Virus record (IMG/VR): IMGVR_UViG_3300018080_000111
DNA from: a virus
Lineage: Duplodnaviria; Heunggongvirae; Uroviricota; Caudoviricetes
Strand: one strand, 5' to 3'
Length of the DNA stretch: 64,000 nucleotides
Part shown: positions 1,565 to 29,913 of the stretch, piece after piece
How positions within the stretch are numbered: position 1 is the first letter of the stretch
How the letters are laid out: every line of letters begins with the position of its first letter
Notes under the pieces: model-generated
Seen by the model: the letters and a program-made list of their open reading frames with translations, nothing else
Databases searched by the model: none
Told to the model about the DNA's origin: nothing
Position numbers and translations under genes: made by a program

Positions 1565-1636
1565 CTAACCCCCCAGGACTCGAACCTGAATTGTGGGATC
1601 AAAACCTCCTGTGCTATCCATTACACTAAGGGGTTA
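1565..1636 (-). tRNA. tRNA-like gene (candidate anticodon UUG, Gln), non-canonical
   Basis: Reverse strand reads TAACCCC..TCAGG-TTCGAGT-CCTGG-GGGGTTA-G. The 7-bp acceptor stem is perfect and the T-arm carries the canonical GGTTCGAGTCC T-loop. The putative anticodon stem GGAGG/CCCAC has two internal mismatches. No encoded CCA. A TATAAT box lies about 12 nt upstream on the reverse strand. Confidence 0.5.
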
Positions 1637-3638: not shown

Positions 3639-3980
3639 CTACTTCAATCTCTTTCGATTCAAAGATCTAAGTTTATTGTAAAACTTGATGGGTTCTTGAA
3701 AAGAATCATATTCTGTATATCTACAATCAAACTCTGGATCAACCAGAGCACCTGGACAATTAGAACACATCGATCCATTCTCCTCTTGATCATATTTACA
3801 AAAGAAACATCCACAACATATATCTGATTCGACATATCCTTCCTTATTAAACCAGATCGACTTTAATTCATTAATATCCCTACTATTCCCTTTTCTCACT
3901 TGATCTGAGATCCATCTCCACATCCTTAGACATTCCTTCCATACATCATCTAACTTAGTTGGCACTTCTATATATTTCAT
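3639..3980 (-). CDS. Cys-rich putative zinc-binding protein (113 aa)
   Basis: Motif CCGCFFC...CSNC...C. Start abuts the stop of the HNH gene. Confidence 0.5.
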   Translation of the reverse strand: MKYIEVPTKLDDVWKECLRMWRWISDQVRKGNSRDINELKSIWFNKEGYVESDICCGCFFCKYDQEENGSMCSNCPGALVDPEFDCRYTEYDSFQEPIKFYNKLRSLNRKRLK

Positions 3981-3981
3981 T

Positions 3982-4491
3982 TTAAGCTCCTACTAGAACC
4001 AGTTCATTGCATGATTGTCTTTTTCTTTTCTTCCTCTTTTTGTAATGGTTTATCTCTTCTTTGGTTTTATTTCCTTTTTTCTGATTACAGGGTTGGCACA
4101 TAACTTGGTAATTGTCTTGATGATTTGGCCCCCTTTTTGATTTGGGAATAATATGATCTTTTGTCATTAAGGTGATTTCTTCCCCATCAATATGGTAGAG
4201 ATTAAGATGGAAAAGAGGTTTCCCATTTTCGGTTTCTCTTTGATCGACACTTAGTACATTTCCGATTTTTCCACAAGAGACACAAATAAGGCTTCTCTCA
4301 AATAGTCGATATCTCTGAGAGGTGATTTTAATTGGAACCAATCCTTTTTCCGATCCAATGAAGATCCTCCTCTTATTCCTATTGTTCTTAGCTGTCCGAA
4401 TATTCCAGAGAAAATGTTTTGGAACAAATCTTAGGATAGAGGTCAGTCCATTTTTCATTTGTATGTTACCAGTTTCATTAATTGGACTCAT
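3982..4491 (-). CDS. HNH endonuclease
   Basis: The C-terminus HIDGEE...DHIIPKSKRGPNHQDNYQVMCQPCNQKKG matches the HNH His-Asn-His/Cys pattern. Confidence 0.75.
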   Translation of the reverse strand: MSPINETGNIQMKNGLTSILRFVPKHFLWNIRTAKNNRNKRRIFIGSEKGLVPIKITSQRYRLFERSLICVSCGKIGNVLSVDQRETENGKPLFHLNLYHIDGEEITLMTKDHIIPKSKRGPNHQDNYQVMCQPCNQKKGNKTKEEINHYKKRKKRKRQSCNELVLVGA

Positions 4492-4817
4492 TTACGTTTC
4501 CTCTAAAACAGGTGAAGCAAAGGGGTTCGTCCTCATACCAGACAGTTTTTCCTGGCTCTAATTCCGTTTGACAGTTGGAACAATTCTCTCCCATAGAATG
4601 TAGTTTCTTTTCAACTTCTTCCAAGGTGGAGCACTTAAACCCCACTAAATTTTTGGAAGATAGATTGGAAAGTAAGAATCCCTCTTCTTGGATTTCAAGA
4701 ACTACAAGTCCTTTTTCACTTGCTCTTTTTCTCAGATTGAATAGTTTCGTAATCTCCCTTTCGCATTAAACCCTATATTTAAAATATAGCCCACTTTTCC
4801 GGGAAGGCCAAATAAAA

Positions 4818-4891
4818 TCTCCCAGGTCAGATTTGAATTGACAACTTCTCGGCCCCAAACCGAGCACTCTGCCAAGTTAAGCTACTGGGAG
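4818..4891 (-). tRNA. tRNA-Pro(UGG)-like
   Basis: Reverse strand reads CTCCCAG-TA-GCTT-AACTTGGCA-GAGT-G-CTCGG-TTTGGGG-CCGAG-AAGTT-GTCAA-TTCAAAT-CTGAC-CTGGGAG-A. The 7-bp acceptor and 5-bp anticodon stems are perfect, the loop is UU-UGG-GG, and the D-loop has A14/G18G19/A21. The T-stem has one A53/C61 mismatch. No encoded CCA. Confidence 0.6.
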
Positions 4892-9634: not shown

Positions 9635-9929
9635 GTCCTCTTTCAACTAAACAAAGTGCGTTCCTGATTAAGTTCGGGGACGCCATATTTTCATCTTAGG
9701 AGAAGAAAAATGATTGATCTCACAAGAATAAAAACCAATATAGTCGAGGAGGACCCATATGTTCCTGCACGATTAATTGGTTTCCGAAAGGATGGGTCTA
9801 AGGTAGAGTCGGCGGATAGGTTCCTGGGATCCTCATTAATAACTCTATTCTCTCTCATAACAGGAGAACAATTAACTCTTAGGGCCATCTCAACCATTAT
9901 AAGGAAAAAGAAAATTAAGGTGGATAATC

Positions 9930-10181
9930 ATGTTTTATCAGTCCTCTAAAGTAGGGAATTCTCTTTTGAATATCTTACCCGCCCTATTTGGTGGCCTAAT
10001 TGGGATGTATCTCATATTTGTTGAGAAGGATATCCTTTTGGCCTTTATTTGTGTCGGACTGGGTAGTCTATTTCTTTTCTTTCGATATCATGTAGAACAG
10101 GAAGAGAAGAGGAAGACGGAGATCTGGAAATTATTGGAACAGAGAATAAAAGAAATTGAAAAGTTAGGAGAAGAAGAATGA
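9930..10181 (+). CDS. small membrane protein, holin-like (2 TM segments plus charged C-tail)
   Basis: Hydrophobic stretches LLNILPALFGGLIGMYLIFV and LLAFICVGLGSLFLFF, then an EEKRK-rich tail. Confidence 0.4.
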   Translation: MFYQSSKVGNSLLNILPALFGGLIGMYLIFVEKDILLAFICVGLGSLFLFFRYHVEQEEKRKTEIWKLLEQRIKEIEKLGEEE

Positions 10182-10375
10182 AATTACTTCTTTGGTGTAT
10201 CTTTTTAATCTCCCTTTGGGGAGTTTTTGGGGAGAGCTATTGGTTAGCTCGGATTGCTCCCTGGCATTGGTTGTCCATGATTTGCCAAAATATGCCGGAT
10301 AGGCTACAATACTATTCGATACCGATAATTATAGCCCTTTTGTTGACAAAGAATAAAAAAGGAGAAACAAAATGA
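10178..10375 (+). CDS. small membrane protein (65 aa)
   Basis: N-terminal TM segment. Translationally coupled to its neighbours. Confidence 0.35.
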   Translation: MKLLLWCIFLISLWGVFGESYWLARIAPWHWLSMICQNMPDRLQYYSIPIIIALLLTKNKKGETK

Positions 10376-11043
10376 AAAAGTTCTTAGTAATTTTGGTAAG
10401 TGCTTTAATGCTCGTTGTAGGAATTGGGTGTGCTACTCTTAGTCATCTTATGACCCCCACAGAAGTAGACCAGAGATCAAAGAATTATGTAATTGAAAAA
10501 GGAGCCGGAGAGGAAGGGGACTATCGCAGTTGGCTTTGGCCTAATCTTGCAGATGCCCAGAAGTTGGATGAAGATTTGGATATTGCCCATGATATGGAAC
10601 AGTTCCGTCTGGATCAGGCCAGGGCTAAGGATATAAAGGATTACTCTCATTGTAAGAAGGTTAGTTCTCATAATGTGAATTCTGGACTACAAAGAGAAGA
10701 GGCCTTATTTGGTGAAAAGGGATTACTTTCCTTAGGACTAAGTTTAGCTGGAATGGGTACTTTAACTGGACTTCTGGGTCTGATGAGAAAGAGGCCTGGT
10801 GATATGACTCCTCAAGATATGGAGAAGGCCTTAGCAGAAGCTACCGGAAAGACAGCAGAAGAGTTGTCTGCCAAACAGAAACAGTTTGTCCAAGTTATCT
10901 CTGGGGTTAGCACTTTGATGAAAGATTGGAAGACCAATAGCCCAGAATTGTATGAGAAGGCAAAGGCCGTCTTTAATACAACTCAGGATACGGAGACTCA
11001 GGTAGCGGTGGCAACAGCAAAGAAAGAAAGTTTGATAGGGTAA
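10372..11043 (+). CDS. putative lipoprotein (223 aa)
   Basis: Signal peptide with lipobox-like LVVGIGC-A. Confidence 0.5.
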   Translation: MKKFLVILVSALMLVVGIGCATLSHLMTPTEVDQRSKNYVIEKGAGEEGDYRSWLWPNLADAQKLDEDLDIAHDMEQFRLDQARAKDIKDYSHCKKVSSHNVNSGLQREEALFGEKGLLSLGLSLAGMGTLTGLLGLMRKRPGDMTPQDMEKALAEATGKTAEELSAKQKQFVQVISGVSTLMKDWKTNSPELYEKAKAVFNTTQDTETQVAVATAKKESLIG

Positions 11044-22770: not shown

Positions 22771-25700
22771 ATGAATATTATTGAAAATCTGAAGAATAAA
22801 CCAATAATTGAAGAGAAGGATCAGGGAAACCTTCCGGATGCTGTCCTTTGCCGGGTTACTTACAATATATGTAATCTGGGAGAAAGGAATGCAAACAATC
22901 GCATCTATGAGAGAGGGGTCTTTGATAAAGTCCTTGCCGATGAAACTCTTCAGGAAATGATTCAGAATCGAAGACTATTTGGTCAGGCGGAACATCCTAC
23001 GGAGACTCAATCTGATCTTCAACTTACTTCTCATGTTATCCATAAGATGTGGATGGATGAGAATAATGTTTGGCAGACCATGGACGTTCTGGATACTCCT
23101 ATGGGTAGAATTGTGGATAGTTTAATCCGGGCTGAGTGTGGTGTTGGTGTTAGCACTCGGGCAGAGGGAGACCTGGAAGAGTCTGAGGATGACACCGGAA
23201 AGTTCAGTAGGGTGATTCCGGAATCATATGTTTACCGCACGACTGATTTTACTGCGGACCCGAGCACGTTCGGAGTTTTACCTGCCTCTATTAAAAGGAA
23301 TGTACTACCTACGGTTCAGGCCGAGATGGAGAACAAGAGTGCTACATCGGCAGAGAGGGACTTTGCTAAGCAGTTGTTTGAGTCTATTTCTAAGACAGAG
23401 GAATCCAAGGAATCTAAAACCACCGTCGAATCCCTTCTTAAAGAAGATAAGATCAAAGAAGGAACAGAACTCCTTTATGGTGATCAGGAGGTCAAGATAA
23501 TTAAGATTGATGAAGGAAGAGTTCTGGTTGGACTCCCAGGAAAAGAAGGAGACATTGCTATCGAAGGTGCAGAGGTTGCTACTATAGAAGTAGACTCTGG
23601 AAAAGTTCATGTCTGGCCGAAGGAGGAGATGGATATAGATGTTCCTGAGGCAGAACCGGTTGGAGATTTTGAGCCTGAGATGGAGGAGAAAAAGGAGACT
23701 AAGGAGACGGTCAGCCATAAAGGAAGAATTGTCATAACTAAGGATGATTTGAAGTTTGCTGATTCTGAAGATCTTCAAAGATTCCGTAAGATGATGGAAT
23801 TGGATAGAGCGGATCTTGAGGATGGTTTAACTTTAGAGGATCTGGAAGAGAAATGTAGTAAGTCCCACCCCAAGAAGAAAAAGATGAAGGAAGGAATGGA
23901 TCAACTCGTGGCTCGTAAGGAAGAACTCCTGGCCAAAAAAGAAGCTGGAAAATGTACTGAGGATGAGCGAAAGGAGTTGGTAGATATTGAGTCCAAGTTG
24001 AAAGATATGGATGTTGATATTGAGGAAAAATCTCTTCCTACTGAAGGAGGAGTCAGCTCTAAGGTTGCACAAGGAAACGTTCTGAAGAAAGGTGAGGAAA
24101 CTTGGATTGTGAAAAATTCAGACGCTTCTGGAGTTACTGTAACACAACCAGGTGAACCCGCTTCTGAGAAACATATTTCATGGGAATCCTTAGATGATGA
24201 GGACTTCGTAAAGATTGGTGAGAAGGTTGAAATTACAGAAGGATTTGATGTAGGAGACATCGTTCAGATAAAGGATAAAGAAGGAAATACTACAGTTGTT
24301 CCTGAGGCTACCGTTGCTAAAAAAGAGGAACAACAGGAAGGAGTAATGGCGGTAGAAGTTACTGGATCGGATAATGAGGATGAAATGCAATGGTACTCTG
24401 AAGATGAATATCAGATTATTCCTTTGAATAGGAAGAAATGGGAATCTAAGGTAGATGAATCTATTGATGAGGGATTCAAAACTGATCTGAGGAATAAGGA
24501 CAAGGCGGCCATCAAGAAAAGAATTTCAAATATTACTGACAAGATTCTTGCTGGTGAAAAAGTATCTTCTTCTGATAAGAGGTATTGGGAGGACTTCCAC
24601 ACGGCTGTGGAGAAGGTGAAAGGGGATGAGCCTAAAAATGAATCTGTTAATGAAGCAAAGGATGGATTCCTTTGGAGTGACCCAATTTCTGGTGCAAAAT
24701 ATGAGTTGACCAAAGATGACGACGGTTATATCATTTATGCTGATGAACAAGAAATTCTTACAACTAAAGGTGGGGGAGTTAAAATTATTGATGAATTCCA
24801 GGTTGGGGATGGGTTTATTAATATTCTATCAGAAACTGGATCTCACCAATATAGTGAATCTAAAGAAAGTAAATTAATTAAAGAACAATCGGATGAGGGC
24901 ACTGTTTATAGATTTAGTTCTTCTTCCGGATATGATTACGTGGCCAGCTTTAAGGAAGATGGGAGTTTTACTATTGAGGATGAGGAAAATGTATTAGCTC
25001 AAGGAACTTGGTCTGGCGCTGGGGTTACCAAAGTTGGCATAAATGATCCAATAAAGATTATTAATTTCCTACAAGAGCTCCTGTTCGATGGGGGTTATGA
25101 GGAAAGACCGATAGAATCCAAAGACATTAAAATCCAAGAGGCCATCTCCAGAGCAGAAAAGGAAAAGGCCTTAGAAACCATTGAGGAACTTTCCAATGAG
25201 TTGGATTCACAAAAGAACGAAAGTTCGGATTCTAAATTGAGGCTCAAGATGCTTATGAAGAAGATGAAGGAATCCCTCCAGGTTTATGATGAGGTATCCG
25301 CTCTTCGGACTAAGTTGGAGGAAAAGGCCAAAGAGGCCCACAGTCTGAGAGAATCCTTGGAGGAATCTAAATCTAAGTTAGATGAGGAGAAAAAGAAAGG
25401 GAAAGAGCAAATCTTAACCATTTCAGAAACACATAAGAATAAAGTAAATGCTATTGTTGAAAGTAACCAAAATCGTATTAAGATAGTAAAGGAGGAATAT
25501 GAGGAAATAGTTGAAGAGTCTAAAGCGCTAGGTATCACTGAAGGAAAATCAAAGGTCCTCAGTGAATACATAGATCGTAGACTTGCTGAGATTGGTCTGA
25601 GTATTGGGGAAAATACTCGAGCACTTCTCGATGGATGCGAATCCATTGGTGACGTGGAGGATATCCTGGAAAAAACTAAGGATATCCAACGCCGGAATGC

Positions 25701-25812
25701 ACTTCATTCTGAAGGAATCAAGGAAGTTCGCATAAGGAACCATCGTCAGATTGATCCTGAACAGGCAAGGGTGAAAGATGATGTGGATAATGCACTCGAC
25801 GGTATGATGTAA
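22771..25812 (+). CDS. prohead protease (T4 gp21-like N-terminal domain) fused to a long acidic coiled-coil scaffold-like region
   Basis: N-terminal NANNRIYERGVFD...LFGQAEHPTE resembles the gp21-family N..R.Y and G..E.DHP motifs. The remaining 800 aa or so are E/K/D-rich. It lies between the portal and the capsid gene, as in T4. Confidence 0.6.
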   Translation: MNIIENLKNKPIIEEKDQGNLPDAVLCRVTYNICNLGERNANNRIYERGVFDKVLADETLQEMIQNRRLFGQAEHPTETQSDLQLTSHVIHKMWMDENNVWQTMDVLDTPMGRIVDSLIRAECGVGVSTRAEGDLEESEDDTGKFSRVIPESYVYRTTDFTADPSTFGVLPASIKRNVLPTVQAEMENKSATSAERDFAKQLFESISKTEESKESKTTVESLLKEDKIKEGTELLYGDQEVKIIKIDEGRVLVGLPGKEGDIAIEGAEVATIEVDSGKVHVWPKEEMDIDVPEAEPVGDFEPEMEEKKETKETVSHKGRIVITKDDLKFADSEDLQRFRKMMELDRADLEDGLTLEDLEEKCSKSHPKKKKMKEGMDQLVARKEELLAKKEAGKCTEDERKELVDIESKLKDMDVDIEEKSLPTEGGVSSKVAQGNVLKKGEETWIVKNSDASGVTVTQPGEPASEKHISWESLDDEDFVKIGEKVEITEGFDVGDIVQIKDKEGNTTVVPEATVAKKEEQQEGVMAVEVTGSDNEDEMQWYSEDEYQIIPLNRKKWESKVDESIDEGFKTDLRNKDKAAIKKRISNITDKILAGEKVSSSDKRYWEDFHTAVEKVKGDEPKNESVNEAKDGFLWSDPISGAKYELTKDDDGYIIYADEQEILTTKGGGVKIIDEFQVGDGFINILSETGSHQYSESKESKLIKEQSDEGTVYRFSSSSGYDYVASFKEDGSFTIEDEENVLAQGTWSGAGVTKVGINDPIKIINFLQELLFDGGYEERPIESKDIKIQEAISRAEKEKALETIEELSNELDSQKNESSDSKLRLKMLMKKMKESLQVYDEVSALRTKLEEKAKEAHSLRESLEESKSKLDEEKKKGKEQILTISETHKNKVNAIVESNQNRIKIVKEEYEEIVEESKALGITEGKSKVLSEYIDRRLAEIGLSIGENTRALLDGCESIGDVEDILEKTKDIQRRNALHSEGIKEVRIRNHRQIDPEQARVKDDVDNALDGMM

Positions 25813-25849: not shown

Positions 25850-26781
25850 ATGTTAGCTGGTAAGCAAATTGTTGAGTCTCGGATGAAACAAATCGAGACG
25901 GAACGGGACGCCCTTCTGAGTGATCCGACTATTAAGCGGTATCTTTCGGCAGTGAGCGAATCCGTTCAGGATAAGAAAGGCAGAGAGATGACTCTGCATG
26001 AGCAGCGTGTGGTTGCTCAGTGTCTCCGGAACGCTATTGATGATGCAGCCATGCGTTCCAGTAAACCGACCTTGTCAGAGACCACGACTGAGGATGCTGT
26101 AAGTTTCCTCGGGGTCCAATTGCCTGTGATAGCGGCACTACTTCCTTCCTTAGTGCTACCCGAGGTTGGAATTGTGCAGGCGATGGACCGGAGAACGGCC
26201 GCGGTCTTCTACTTCGACGTGAAGTATGGAAGCACCAAGGGTGCGGTTACTGCGGGTGACACGATGTTGTCGGCTACGACTGGCCATGCGACTTCAAAGT
26301 CCGGCCGGATGTATGCGATCGCTCGAGTGGTTGATGAGACTATTGGTACTAGTGACGGAACTAAGTCCGGTACCTTGGAGTACGCTCCTGGTCTGATTAA
26401 TCTTGAGAACATTAAGTTCGAGTCCGTTAGTGGATCGACGCGGACTACCCTGGGTACTTCTAATGCCAGCGGTACTGTTACTGGAGACTATGTCACTTCT
26501 GGTACGGTCACTGCGGCTGGAGTTTATAATGTGACGTTTTCAGGGTTGACGAGTGGAACGACCATTTATATTACGTACGACTATCAGTACGATAAACCGG
26601 TTGATTCGTATAACAATCGGGATGGTGTTCCTGAGGTCGATTTCTCGATTACCCAGAGCTCACTTGAAGCTATTGACTTCCCAGTGAGATCGCGGTATTC
26701 GGTTGGGGCGGCTTTGGATATGATGAAAGCTCACGGTGTAGATCTCGAAAAAGAGGTCGTAAAGTATCTTGGTCACGAGAT
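25850..26781 (+). CDS. major capsid protein (T4 gp23-like), exon 1
   Basis: AALDMMKAHGVDLEKEVVKYLGHEI aligns with T4 gp23 AQDLRAVHGMDADAELSGILATEI. GC is elevated, about 50%. The frame terminates at TAG 26792 just inside the intron. Confidence 0.7.
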
Positions 26782-27087
26782 TAGCTTAAATTAGTCTCGT
26801 AAGCAGCTCAATTCGGTGAAAACCTGATCAGAGAAATCTGAAGGCAATACCGAGCCAGATTATTAAAAAGAAGTATAATATGACTTTCCTAATTTGGACA
26901 GAGGATTTTCTTTTTAATAAAAATGGTGTAACGACTACTTTTCCTCAGGTGACTGGGGAAGATACGGCTGCCAACTCAATAGAGTTGAAGGGATAGTCTG
27001 AGCTGCATGGAAACATGCAGAGATGAGCAGAAATGACTCATCCGCCTATTAAATGATTTGGATAATAGGTTAACAAGCAACAGAATG
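26782..27087 (+). mobile_element. group I intron 1 (306 nt, ORF-less)
   Basis: P1: exon CGAGAU (26776-81) pairs with intron GUCUCG (26794-99) with a terminal U.G at the splice site. R-like aacgactac at about 26925. S-like gatagtctg at about 26993. P9 hairpin CTGCATG-GAAA-CATGCAG. P9.1 GATGAG...CTCATC. Candidate omega-G at 27087 in context aacagaatG. Length is a multiple of 3. Confidence 0.6.
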
Positions 27088-27271
27088 TAAATTCACAGTC
27101 GACCAAGTCGGGCTGGATTTAATCGACGAAGCTGCAAGTGGCAGCGGAGCTGCTACGGGAACCACAGTGTTCGATACTACTCTTTCAAATGGCGAGGCAT
27201 GGATTTGGCGTAAGCATATGTTGAAAGATAGGTTCGAAGAAGGTAAATATATTGCCTCTTTATTCAGCAAT
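27088..27271 (+). CDS. major capsid protein, middle exon (3' boundary uncertain, somewhere 27250-27289)
   Basis: Open frame 27074-27289 encodes ...KFTVDQVGLDLIDEAASGSGAATGTTVFDTTLSNGEAWIW..., matching the T4 gp23 segment VVDWINYSAQVGKSG..GSKAGVFDF..GARWAG that is absent from exons 1 and 3. Confidence 0.5.
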
Positions 27272-27529
27272 GAATATCGAAAATCTGCTTAAACGGAGAA
27301 ACTCCTAACAGATGATGCTGAGGACAATTCCGTACTAGAATATCGAAAATCCATTATGGATAGAACAGATATAAATAGTGTAGAGACTAAGTTGATGGAA
27401 GCGATTCCATTGGCCATGGCAGACATCCCAAGTGGATGAAGAAATAGTCCGAGCTGTATGGAAACATGCAGAGATGAGCAGAAATGACTCATCCGCCTAC
27501 TTAGGTAGGTCACAAAAAGTAACAGATTG
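27272..27529 (+). mobile_element. group I intron 2 (about 258 nt, ORF-less; 5' boundary uncertain)
   Basis: R-like tagagactaag at 27379-27389. S aagaaatagtccg at 27438-27450, a 12/13 match to AAGATATAGTCCG. P9 CTGTATG-GAAA-CATGCAG. P9.1. Candidate omega-G at 27529 in context aacagattG, paralleling intron 1. Confidence 0.55.
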
Positions 27530-27847
27530 AGTAACAACATCTTCGCAAAGACCAAGAGGGCAATCGCGAACTTTATCATTTGTGGCAACAATGTTGCTCG
27601 TGTCATTAAGCAACTTCAGCCTGATTTTGTTCCGGCACCGGGTCTGAATAAGACTCCGCCTACTGGTCCGATTAAGATTGGTGAGTTGAATGGACGTACG
27701 GTTATCCAGAATCCTTTCAAGTCAAGCAACTACTACACGATGGGTTATAAGGGTGATAATTACCTGATGGCTGGGTCAACACACATCAGGGAAATGGTAA
27801 AAGAACTTTGTTCAGATCAGTATAATAGTATGAACAAAGCTGCATAA
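27530..27847 (+). CDS. major capsid protein, exon 3
   Basis: NFIICGNNVARVI aligns with T4 NFIIASRNVVNVL, and YYTMGYKGDNYLMAG with YFTVGYKGPNEMDAG. The frame is open from 27509 and shared with exons 1 and 2. Confidence 0.7.
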   Translation, partial: SNNIFAKTKRAIANFIICGNNVARVIKQLQPDFVPAPGLNKTPPTGPIKIGELNGRTVIQNPFKSSNYYTMGYKGDNYLMAGSTHIREMVKELCSDQYNSMNKAA

Positions 27848-27878
27848 ACATGGGCCCAGTATAAAGGAATTAAATTCG

Positions 27879-28982
27879 GTGAAGGCTAAGGAAGAACGTA
27901 ATTTTGTGGAAAAGGATGGCAAGTGGATCTGCCTTCTTTGTGATCGGGAATTTAAAAGCAAGGCCAGTGTAGGAAGCCATTTGAGTTGGCATTCCAGCGG
28001 TCCCCGTTCCACGGATCATCTTGAGTATGCCAGATCTTGTGTTAATAAGGAAGAACAGATCAAGTCTATGCATAAGGCCTTACGAAAGAAGTTTGAGGAT
28101 AAGGAATGGGTTGAAGATAAGTATAAAAGGACTTCTGAAAGTATAAAGAGTTCTTTTTACTTTAGCGAAGAGAATAAGGAAGTAAGAATAGTTAATGCCA
28201 GGAAAGGCTCAGATTCCTTGTGGAGTAATCCAGAATCCAAGGATAAATGGATGGAAAGTCGGTTTGATAACCAATTTAAGCAGAACCATTACATCTATAA
28301 TGGAACTCATTTTAGAAGCACCTATGAAGTGAAGTTCGCTTATATTTTGGATGTTCTAGGTTTCAATTGGGAATATGAGACGGGATATTTTAATTATCAT
28401 CTGTATGGAAAAGAGAGAAAATACCTTCCAGATTTTTACCTTCCTGAGTTAGATATTTGGGTTGAGGTTTTTGGAAGATATACAGATGAGAAGGGATTAA
28501 AGATTTATCTTACTTCTAAGGAAAACAATATTACTATCTTCGCTACCACATTAGATGACTTTCACTCATTTGAGTTAAATGATCAAGATATCATTTTTTC
28601 TCAGGATGGGGAGAAGGAAAACTTCTTCTATGCTAATACCGAGCCAAGCCAAATAAGAAATTATTTGGAAGGTGTAGAGACTAGAATCGAAAGTCTAAGG
28701 AAATATATTATTTCTAGGGCAAGTAGATTCCACGAACAGTTCCTCGTAGATGAAAACTACGAAAGATATAGTCCGACCTTACAAGAAATTGTAAGAAATG
28801 AGGATAAAGAGCCTCATGATAACATAAATGTCATGTACTGTCCGTACATCCCCTTATTCGCTACTCCAACCTTAATTACCAGTGATCTTATCTCTCAGAA
28901 GGGCTTCTTAAGCTCGGCTGGATTTAAGGTGATCAACGCTGGTATGTTCTGTGAGGGGTACATCAGTGGTACGATTTCTTAA
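27879..28982 (+). CDS. C2H2 zinc-finger plus PD-(D/E)xK-like nuclease (candidate free-standing homing endonuclease)
   Basis: N-terminal CLLCDREFKSKASVGSHLSWH (C2H2). Core PDFYLPELDIWVEV resembles a PD...E.D restriction-like motif. Sits directly 3' of the intron-bearing capsid gene. Confidence 0.5.
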   Translation: MKAKEERNFVEKDGKWICLLCDREFKSKASVGSHLSWHSSGPRSTDHLEYARSCVNKEEQIKSMHKALRKKFEDKEWVEDKYKRTSESIKSSFYFSEENKEVRIVNARKGSDSLWSNPESKDKWMESRFDNQFKQNHYIYNGTHFRSTYEVKFAYILDVLGFNWEYETGYFNYHLYGKERKYLPDFYLPELDIWVEVFGRYTDEKGLKIYLTSKENNITIFATTLDDFHSFELNDQDIIFSQDGEKENFFYANTEPSQIRNYLEGVETRIESLRKYIISRASRFHEQFLVDENYERYSPTLQEIVRNEDKEPHDNINVMYCPYIPLFATPTLITSDLISQKGFLSSAGFKVINAGMFCEGYISGTIS

Positions 28983-29100
28983 TCGTATGTTTAGTTAACT
29001 AGGTTAAATTTTCAGGTATTTTCGAATAGTTGGAAACTCAGGGTAGGACTTCTAAGGAAAGGGGTTCTGCCCTGGGCCTTTAGTATTTTAGGAATGAATA

Positions 29101-29913
29101 ATGTTCAACGAACTATACGAAAACATTCCTACTGAAATCAGTAAATCTGAATTCGAAGAACTTTTTCAGCCCATTTCTCAAGAAGAAGTAGAATCCAGAT
29201 TAATGGACTACATCAAGTCCGTCTGTACTGAAAATCCAGATGGCACTTGGAGTGCCAGTGGAGATGTGGATTTATCCAAAAGGGGTCTAACTAAGTTACC
29301 CATCAAATTCAAGGAAGTAGGTGGAGGCTTTTATTGTTCTCATAATAATCTAACTTCTCTAGAAGGAGCACCTCAGACAGTAGGTGGAGGCTTTTATTGT
29401 TACAACAACTCTCTAACTTCTCTAGAAGGAGCACCTCAGGAAGTAGGTGGAAACTTTGATTGCTCCTTCAACTCTCTAACCTCTCTAGAAGGAGCCCCTC
29501 AGACAGTAGGTAGTTTCTTTGATTGTTATAACAACTCTCTAACTTCTCTAGAAGGAGCCCCTCAGACAGTAGGCGGAGGCTTTTTGTGTTCTGACAACAA
29601 ATTAACTTCTCTAGAAGGAGCACCTCAGACAGTAGGTGGAAACTTTTTGTGTTCTGACAACAAATTAACTTCTCTAGAAGGAGCACCTCAGACAGTAGGT
29701 GGTTTCTTTGATTGCTCCTACAACTTACTAACTTCTCTAGAAGGAGCACCTCAGACAGTAGGTGGTTTCTTTGAGTGTTCCTTCAACTCTCTAACTTCTC
29801 TAGAAGGAGCGCCCCAGGAAGTAGGTGGATCCTTTCATTGTTCCAACAACAAACTTTCAGTTGAAGAATTAAAGAAAACAATAGATAGACCTTATTTGGA
29901 TAGAATAGGATAA
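29101..29913 (+). CDS. leucine-rich-repeat (20-aa LTSLEGAPQxVGGxFxCSxN units) protein, paralog 1
   Basis: About 9 tandem 60-bp repeats. The N-terminal 60 aa are near-identical to ORFs 43661 and 45334. Confidence 0.6.
   Translation: MFNELYENIPTEISKSEFEELFQPISQEEVESRLMDYIKSVCTENPDGTWSASGDVDLSKRGLTKLPIKFKEVGGGFYCSHNNLTSLEGAPQTVGGGFYCYNNSLTSLEGAPQEVGGNFDCSFNSLTSLEGAPQTVGSFFDCYNNSLTSLEGAPQTVGGGFLCSDNKLTSLEGAPQTVGGNFLCSDNKLTSLEGAPQTVGGFFDCSYNLLTSLEGAPQTVGGFFECSFNSLTSLEGAPQEVGGSFHCSNNKLSVEELKKTIDRPYLDRIG

Follow-up and report, generated by a model that had tools for sequence, protein, structure and literature searches.

T4-type phages recombine intensively and make heavy use of recombination-dependent replication. 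Domain shuffling among the group I introns of the T4 genes td, nrdB and nrdD (sunY) was reportedly described by Bryk and Belfort in Nature in 1990. Recombination at short conserved core sequences is said to have produced chimeric introns that were still able to splice, and the crossovers, reportedly selected in the laboratory, are said to have taken place between distant genes with deletion of the intervening DNA.

[quoted passage not shown] The same summary describes introns 2 and 3 of Twort as similar throughout and as flanking a 23-nt exon (PMC10136302). Group I introns in capsid and late genes of phages were also reported for the Cluster J mycobacteriophages (PMC3706429) and in a survey of the Bastillevirinae (PMC11878797). 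Furthermore, introns devoid of an endonuclease can be mobilised by a nearby endonuclease through trans homing and co-conversion (PMC2790892, PMC2988022).

The locus analysed here belongs to a tailed phage (Caudoviricetes; IMG/VR record IMGVR_UViG_3300018080_000111), from which a stretch of 64,000 nts was analysed, hereafter called the window. It shares with the known phage introns the interruption of conserved structural or replication genes, often together with homing endonuclease genes, and with Twort orf142 the presence of several putative group IA introns close together in one phage gene.

A capsid gene interrupted by three group I introns

The gene located at 25850-28982 codes for a major capsid protein distantly similar to gp23 of T4 (PF07068, phrog_138) and lies directly downstream of the gene for a prohead-protease fusion protein. 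It is interrupted by three group I introns, termed I1, I2 and I3:

25850..26781, + strand: exon 1; PF07068 and phrog_138, colinear with the intron-less homologues P0001-P0011; DNA junction set against the relative L135
26782..27087, + strand: I1, 306-nt group I intron without intact ORF; RF00028, 54.4 bits
27088..27244, + strand: exon 2, 157 nts; T + KFTVDQVGLDLIDEAAS...DRFEEG; homologue alignment and L135
27245..27529, + strand: I2, 285-nt group I intron without ORF; RF00028, 64.3 bits
27530..27776, + strand: exon 3; SNNIFAKTKR...GDNYLMAG + T; homologue alignment and L135
27777..28830, + strand: I3, 1054-nt group I intron assigned to another lineage, with an endonuclease ORF
28831..28982, + strand: exon 4; TC + MYCPYIPLFATPTL...GTIS, stop; homologue alignment and L135

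The splice junctions were set by aligning the assembled spliced product with 15 homologues from the protein collection. The product measures 495 aa and can be aligned over its full length with P0001 (86% identity) and with 14 further homologues; the closest homologues are full-length, intron-less and 75-86% identical. In L135, the nearest intron-less relative (77% nucleotide identity), the DNA is uninterrupted at all three intron sites. The initial annotation had recommended a comparison with relatives that lack introns at these positions, and both L135 and the protein homologues are colinear with the spliced gene across all sites. At the sequence level, the three splice junctions are fixed by these intron-less homologues. 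Exon 2 encodes 52 conserved capsid residues, colinear with the intron-less homologues, which excludes the scenario of one ancestral intron whose middle segment is non-coding.

Each intron follows a U that pairs with a G in P1, and each ends in G. Placing the 5′ splice site of I1 after U26769, as in the Rfam alignment of P1, proved to be wrong, because the intron-less homologues have four more residues (GHEI) at this point, which moves the site to U26781; exon 1 hence ends with ...VVKYLGHE followed by the AT of an Ile codon. No group I intron beyond I1-I3 was found in the 64-kb window, and none there could be the source of the 5′ part of I2. With exon 1 alone as query, no related locus was found in the viral contig collection, and searches of cultured phages (tblastn, blastn) returned merely capsid proteins of 25-27% identity and short matches to intron cores.

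Three assemblies from different runs (two MEGAHIT contigs of 144.8 kb from ENA and one Logan contig) are identical over 25850-28985, hence the gene structure with I1-I3 is not an assembly artefact. The sequence does come from a metagenome, in which a repeat such as the one shared by I1 and I2 (see below) could have been collapsed or copied. Besides the agreement of the three assemblies, the repeat measures 63 nts, far under the k = 141 implied by the 'k141' prefix of the ENA contigs, its copies carry private differences, and the capsid reading frame needs both introns removed, all of which make such an artefact extremely unlikely.

Two different ribozymes

I1 and I2 belong to the same large subfamily of phage introns, each being a complete group I ribozyme distinct from the other. 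Both exceed the gathering score of RF00028 (50) in Rfam and cover positions 1-253 of the model. Their MFE folds show P1, P3-P6, P7.1, P8, P9, P9.1 and P9.2, with z = -7.5 for I1 and -5.1 for I2. In I1, P1 is formed by 8 bp between 26776-26783 and 26792-26799, with U26781.G26794 at the 5′ splice site, and the terminal G is 27087. In I2, U27244 pairs with the G of GCCUCUUU at the 5′ splice site and the terminal G is 27529, a junction backed by L002, L135 and the A2 alignment. A P2 is present in I2 and absent from I1, and P5, P7.1 and P8 differ between them. The IA2 subgroup, to which the td and nrdD introns of T4 belong, is characterised by two additional helices, P7.1 and P7.2, located between P7 and the 3′ strand of P3, and by P9.1/P9.2 extensions. 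Between P7 and P3′, each intron has one predicted hairpin (P7.1) and no evident P7.2; P9.1 and P9.2 are both present. Similarity to the T4-type nrdD intron is confined to P8-P9.

I1 also contains a short reading frame:

26880..26996, + strand: 38-codon ORF, endonuclease remnant; P6-P8 of I1, similarity to the ORF of the L002 site-A intron

This ORF is 66% identical over 32 aa (E = 2e-11) to the C-terminus of the ORF carried by the site-A intron of the relative L002, which matches PF08722, as does the ORF of the L129 intron. Judged by this alignment, its start codon has been joined to the C-terminal end of a TnsA-like PD-(D/E)XK homing endonuclease, and the L002 site-A and L129 introns still possess this endonuclease gene in intact form. 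The part of the endonuclease gene that was kept in I1 doubles as the 3′ strand of P6, P7, P7.1 and P3′. P7 forms the guanosine-binding site of group I introns. The 5′ part of I1 is 73-75% identical to the L129 and L002 site-A introns, and its P8-J8/7-P7-P9 stretch shares 83% identity with the nrdD intron of EC128, a T4-like phage.

The 3′ domain shared by I1 and I2

Near their 3′ ends, the two introns carry a 63-nt direct repeat (94% identity, spacing 451):

26986..27048, + strand: shared 3′ domain, copy 1, in I1; J8/7, 3′ strand of P7, P9.0, P9, P9.1 and 5′ strand of P9.2
27437..27499, + strand: shared 3′ domain, copy 2, in I2; P9 27454-27471, P9.1 27473-27493 and P9.2 27495-27510

In copy 1, P9 spans 27003-27020, P9.1 spans 27022-27042 and P9.2 spans 27044-27070; in the shared block, both P9 and P9.1 carry a GAAA loop, and P9.1 a bulged A. 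The initial annotation had described near-identical 3′ domains joined to unrelated 5′ halves, and both halves of that description hold. In register, 26992-27048 and 27443-27499 differ at three positions (26992, 26999 and 27006), the number given by the initial annotation; its interval for the second copy, 27441-27500, was off by 1-2 nts. A 56-nt pattern with two variable positions allowed has just these two matches in the window and 0 in shuffles. Pairwise alignment of the introns, which had been suggested as a check, gives 92-94% identity (59/63-59/64) in the shared block, against 49-56% over P1-P8 upstream and 55-57% in the tail. The 5′ parts have the common group I core alone in common, with a best local alignment score of 22, equal to that of random family pairs. 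A maximum-chi-square scan of I1 against I2 delimits the segment 26993-27048, with an identity of 0.96 inside and 0.56 outside (permutation p <= 0.003).

Within I1 and I2, no complement of the P9.1 loop was seen by eye. It is better interpreted as a GAAA tetraloop that closes a C-G/A-U stem top, with a bulged A, and this interpretation is supported by the L129 variant GGAGAAAUCAC, in which that C-G pair is flipped to G-C.

It is worth noting that the 63-nt direct repeat now flanks exon 2, and that a crossover between the copies would delete 451 nts including the 157-nt exon. The products of such crossovers should be lethal and purged, because exon 2 would be lost with a shift of the reading frame.

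The similarity of the 3′ domains had been proposed to reflect a recent duplication or transposition of a whole intron within the gene. By reverse splicing or ectopic homing, such an event would have to be followed by fast divergence of the 5′ two-thirds. Duplication does occur in the subfamily, since L023 has twin introns, in a capsid gene of the unrelated HK97 type, whose sequences are related throughout and identical over the last ~103 nts. For I1 and I2, this origin is nevertheless rejected as very unlikely: their 5′ parts are no more alike than those of random family members, P2 is found in I2 alone and the endonuclease remnant in I1 alone, and the architecture differs in P5, P7.1 and P8. 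Moreover, closer relatives of each 5′ part are found in other contigs: for I1 these are L129 and the L002 site-A intron, and for I2 the orthologue L140 described below (93% identity), which the tail of I2 resembles again after the patch.

An orthologue of I2 and a probable conversion patch

When the exon-3 ORF was used as query against the protein collection, short fragments of capsid proteins from relatives with introns were retrieved. One of these, P0122, is encoded on L140, a 576-nt contig from another metagenome. L140 carries an intron exactly at the I2 site, ending in GUAACAGAUUG before AAC AAC AAC AUC UUC, and, at the I3 site, the first part of an intron resembling I3. It is a single contig of ~2x coverage and provides the one I2 orthologue used in the comparison. 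No second orthologue of I2 was found, and a junction pattern of the I2 site for any intron of the family had no match in the viral contig collection. A pattern of the P5-P4-P6-J6/7 region of I2 matched just L002 and the unrelated GC-rich, HNH-bearing intron L139, and was set aside as generic core sequence. Along I2, identity to L140 and to I1 is distributed as follows:

P1b-P4: I2 vs L140 82/88 (93%); I2 vs I1 56%
J6/7-P8: I2 vs L140 54/65 (83%); I2 vs I1 51%
J8/7 to start of P9.2: I2 vs L140 49/63 (78%); I2 vs I1 59/63 (94%)
Tail: I2 vs L140 22/30 (73%); I2 vs I1 57%

The sites that are informative in the three-way comparison, i.e., at which I2 agrees with either L140 or I1, show the same pattern (58:10, 1:12 and 6:1; Fisher p = 1e-7) and delimit a candidate patch:

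27245-27450: 58 sites with L140, 10 with I1
27451-27499: 1 site with L140, 12 with I1
27500-27529: 6 sites with L140, 1 with I1
27453..27492 (minimal; maximal 27451-27500), + strand: candidate conversion patch in I2; 12/13 informative sites I1-like, flanks L140-like

Since the sites inside are I1-like and both flanks are L140-like, I2 has probably received a short gene-conversion patch (~40-50 nts) of I1-type sequence. An exchange of 3′ domains through recombination had been among the options of the initial annotation, and the comparison with L140 narrows it to 27451/53-27492/27500. The upstream end of the patch falls in the block GAAGNNAUAGUCYGA, of which AUAGUCYGA is common to I1, I2 and L140. 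At the downstream end, GCAGAAAUGACUC and CCGCCUA are common to all three, and GCAGAAAUGAC is shared by I1 and I2. The patch differs from I1 at 1 of 49 nts. In P9/P9.1, I2 and L140 show 12 differences, five of which are compensatory changes affecting both partners of a pair. From 5′ to 3′, I2 and L140 become somewhat more divergent (93, 83, 78 and 73% identity), hence the incongruence rests mainly on the 13 sites of the patch.

The transfer would have run from I1 to I2, because the patch is closest to introns related to the 5′ part of I1. The L002 site-A intron, which is one of these, has a P9.1 and a start of P9.2 identical to those of I1. The donor was probably either I1 itself or, in a co-infecting relative, an allele resembling I1.

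Conservation or exchange within the subfamily

The subfamily was delimited with a pattern consisting of AUAGUCYG, a variable P9 and the P9.1 top GCAGAAAUGAC, which has matches in at least 120 IMG/VR contigs. The 126 distinct 3′ domains compared (~125 IMG/VR contigs) have a median pairwise identity of 0.70 and a 99th percentile of 0.875. Those of I1 and I2 are 0.96 identical and mutual nearest neighbours among the 126, the next nearest being those of L001 and of the L002 site-A intron (0.86-0.90). In an ungapped alignment of 44 members, 99.1% of the cells of P9 and P9.1 are paired, with a covariation score of 0.748 compared to 0.162 in shuffles and at most 0.15 with slid partners. The P9.1 stem exists in 64 variants, the variant of the window being found in 7/126.

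A different explanation involves no exchange at all and assumes that purifying selection acts far more strongly on the 3′ domain than on the remaining intron. In most pairs of this small clade, the 3′ block is indeed somewhat more conserved (0.77-0.88) than the 5′ part (0.57-0.70), and the P9.1 loop is conserved in more than 120 contigs, but this loop was the search criterion. Such selection is a highly improbable explanation, as ten stem pairs vary with compensation across the family, at which I1 and I2 agree save for one G-C to G.U. The orthologue of I2 has moreover accumulated the 12 differences in the patch that were described above, five of them compensatory on both sides. In the control comparison of I1 with the L129 intron, identity is even (0.72-0.74) in every segment after P1, which argues that the 3′ domain is not intrinsically slow in the clade of I1 and L129. 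Because P9 and P9.1 covary freely across ~125 contigs, constraint does not explain the identity of I1 and I2. Part of this identity is a common family state, since the same P9 stem, CUGCAUG/CAUGCAG, is present in the T4-type nrdD intron and in the L002 site-B intron.

It could also be supposed that the mosaic was made elsewhere, either because I2 arrived with a window-type 3′ domain or because the donor was an I1-like intron of another phage. The similarity to I1 would then reflect a shared pool of modules and not an exchange between these two copies. The same P9.1 and start of P9.2 are found in the L002 site-A intron, and the same P9.1 in L001 and L003-L005 beside other 5′ parts, which suggests circulating modules; the habitat of the phage is also poorly sampled in the collections that were scanned. 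On the other hand, the two copies are mutual nearest neighbours with 1 difference per 49 nts, 451 nts apart in one gene, and neither 2.9 million viral contigs nor the JGI metagenome set yielded a closer donor. The 24-mer of the window P9.1 occurs in five IMG/VR contigs, none of which pairs it with the P9 of the window, and the 27-mer covering P9.1/P9.2 occurs in zero JGI metagenome contigs. An origin of the mosaic outside this pair of introns is thus considered unlikely, and conversion of I2 by I1-type sequence is the preferred reading.

Apparent mosaic pairs between other contigs (L019, L041, L094, L087 and L088) were rejected: their sequence upstream of J8/7 is an endonuclease ORF in P8, hence the comparison of the upstream 100 nts is invalid in these contigs.

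L023 represents a second, independent tandem-intron case, in which the sequence upstream of the identical 3′ ends is ~70% identical. A broader proposal is that homogenisation of 3′ modules between tandem introns is recurrent and selected or, alternatively, that the 3′ module acts as a spreading cassette. This is quite doubtful, and homogenisation is not general, as the intron pairs of L002, L141, L067 and L074 keep different 3′ domains. If it were true, the 5′ core of the upstream intron and the 3′ domain of the downstream intron could, owing to their common P7 3′ strand and P9-P9.1 domain, form a large ribozyme that skips the middle exon, which would provide the phage or its introns with a switch throttling the production of capsid protein.

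A 14-mer repeated within I2

The 14-mer GAATATCGAAAATC has exactly two occurrences (0.04 expected):

27272..27285, + strand: 14-mer, copy 1; end of P2, J2/3 and start of P3 of I2
27338..27351, + strand: 14-mer, copy 2; distal P6 of I2, with the 5′ strand of P6a, an internal loop and the start of P6b

The probability of a repeat this long in a 285-nt sequence of the composition of I2 is ~5.5e-4. The initial annotation had given both positions correctly but had assigned copy 1 to the middle exon, which ends at 27244; both copies are internal to I2, and the repeat marks neither a 5′ junction nor a scar in the exon. The L140 orthologue retains copy 1 with one mismatch, hence this copy is ancestral, while the P6 segment corresponding to copy 2 is different in L140. 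Copy 2 is best read, from this alignment, as a lineage-specific remodelling of P6, possibly templated from J2/3.

I3 and a possible route of conversion

I3 is preceded by U27776 and has G28830 as its terminal G. Its Rfam match (34 bits, E = 2.8e-6) covers the 3′ part, 28586-28795, and lies below the threshold because the core is split by the endonuclease ORF. This ORF starts with the GTG at 27879, is inserted after P4/P5 and continues in frame into exon 4. It contains a C2H2 zinc finger and a PD-(D/E)XK-like domain, and matches phrog_15137 (E = 1.6e-13) as well as PF05367 at 28 bits, which is under the cut-off. The endonuclease is apparently intact. The core blocks that I3 has in common with I1 and I2 are the repeats D3, D8 and D10. 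Its 3′ end is devoid of the conserved P9.1 loop sequence of I1 and I2 and is 86% identical to Bacillus phage introns. On these comparisons, I3 is of a different lineage from I1 and I2.

In the proposed mechanism, P9.0, P9 and P9.1 of I2 would have been overwritten with I1-type sequence through homologous recombination. The route would be either the conversion of a short tract or template switching, in the course of double-strand-break repair or of replication. In mixed infections, breaks in this gene would be made by the endonuclease of I3 and, at an earlier time, by that of I1. Similar to introns that are mobilised by trans homing, I1 and I2 are without an endonuclease and lie 250-1000 nts from the insertion site of I3. 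By analogy, repair of a break at this site could co-convert the ORF-less I1 and I2, and template switching would be possible between their homologous blocks.

In group I introns, the core is stabilised by the docking of GNRA loops, carried by P9-type extensions, on helical receptors of the 5′ half. All members of the subfamily have conserved terminal loops, hence a P9/P9.1 from another intron is expected to remain compatible and 3′ modules should be interchangeable.

Comparison with known systems

The relatives of this capsid gene differ in their sets of introns. In L002, the I1 site and a site further upstream (after MQKA) are occupied, L129 has one intron located eight bases downstream of the L002 site-A position, and L141 has at least three endonuclease-bearing introns. 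Protein fragments reveal further intron sites, between those of I1 and I2 and past that of I3. Across the relatives, introns are found at at least seven distinct sites in the second half of the gene, and most of those for which the 3′ end could be read belong to one subfamily with a conserved P9.1 loop. This number of sites, occupied mostly by one subfamily, distinguishes the lineage from the surveyed phage introns.

This lineage of uncultivated, distantly T4-like phages of ~145 kb could serve as a system for the study of intron gain and loss, endonuclease decay and co-conversion. As far as could be found, a natural exchange of domains between group I introns that is resolved to the nucleotide is rare; in this case, donor, recipient and unconverted orthologue can be aligned together. 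The exchange supports the view of the 3′ peripheral domain as a plug-in module, and I2 with either an L140-type or an I1-type P9/P9.1 represents a natural pair for studying the compatibility of such modules. Existing knowledge of how group I introns work is unchanged, and the locus is not a new kind of element.

Compared to Twort orf142, the similarity of neighbouring introns may likewise allow one intron to contribute its 5′ part and the following intron its 3′ part to a single large ribozyme. Unlike in Twort, the similarity of I1 and I2 is limited to 63 nts, with 5′ parts that are 49-56% identical, the intervening exon measures 157 nts and its skipping shifts the reading frame.

The closest parallel in mechanism is the shuffling among the T4 td, nrdB and nrdD introns, which likewise involves DNA recombination between different introns of one phage genome. 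In contrast to the T4 chimeras, the exchange proposed here is natural and non-deleting: it would be a patch of 40-50 nts limited to P9/P9.1, copied within a single essential gene, with both introns and the exon between them kept.

Intron positions in the capsid gene of relatives

Across the relatives (contigs L002, L129, L140, L141 and L143; proteins P0123-P0130), group I introns occupy at least seven different positions in the second half of the gp23-like capsid gene, and in L141 three introns within this gene carry an endonuclease. Many translated capsid fragments from relatives start with ...SNRL or ...VTEC, which are in-frame readings of the conserved intron 3′ end (GUAACAGAUUG / GUAACAGAAUG). 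In NCBI, two further capsid homologues, P0015 and P0052 (approximately 57-62% identity), belong to MAGs labelled Candidatus Thorarchaeota and Candidatus Hodarchaeota. These labels could reflect mis-binned phage contigs or could point to the hosts that phages of this group infect.

Endonuclease genes of introns 1 and 3

The 38-aa ORF of intron 1 (window 26880-26996) is what an in-frame deletion has left of a TnsA-like homing endonuclease gene, which is intact in two relatives:

L002, 6562-7476, minus strand: intact TnsA-like endonuclease ORF
L129, 5029-5973: intact TnsA-like endonuclease ORF

In both relatives, the ORF shares its last ~35 codons with the ribozyme core, from the 3′ strand of P6 to J8/7, and this stretch is therefore a dual-use sequence. 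The endonuclease ORF of intron 3 (window 27879-28982) is without a stop codon of its own; its frame stays open through the 3′ part of the ribozyme, crosses the 3′ splice site and continues in exon 4 up to the stop codon of the capsid gene. If unspliced RNA served as template, the intron 3 endonuclease would bear the last 50 capsid residues.

Intron 3′ ends and repeats

The top of the GAAA-capped 3′ hairpin P9.1 reads GGAGAAAUCAC in L129 (5990-6015) and GCAGAAAUGAC in the others. This compensatory exchange of a C-G for a G-C pair supports a closing pair beneath a GAAA tetraloop, with a bulged A. Twin introns were also found in the contig L023, an unrelated GC-rich phage:

L023, ~3900-4603 of the reverse complement (plus-strand 9704-10400), minus strand: twin group I introns

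They lie approximately 40 nts apart in the 5′-terminal region of a capsid gene of the HK97 type, and are 100% identical over their last ~103 nts, versus approximately 70% further upstream.

Intron 2 contains an exact 14-nt direct repeat (27272-27285 and 27338-27351), the copies of which occupy different structural contexts, J2/3 and P6a. Either copy could pair with the P6a 3′ strand GAUAU, so that an alternative fold of intron 2 is conceivable. Most other close direct repeats of the window come from the DNA encoding a 270-aa leucine-rich repeat protein.

Other features of the window

1566-1635, minus strand: tRNA gene (Rfam RF00005, 36.3 bits)
4818-4891, minus strand: tRNA gene (Rfam RF00005, 50.7 bits)
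22771-25812: 1013-aa protein with a prohead serine protease domain at its N-terminus (PF03420, phrog_207)
29101-29913: 270-aa protein composed of approximately nine tandem leucine-rich repeats (GGxFxCxxNxLTSLEGAPQxV)

The 1013-aa protein is encoded directly 5′ of the capsid gene. Its protease domain is followed by approximately 800 Glu/Lys-rich residues, and the protein is far longer than gp21 of T4.
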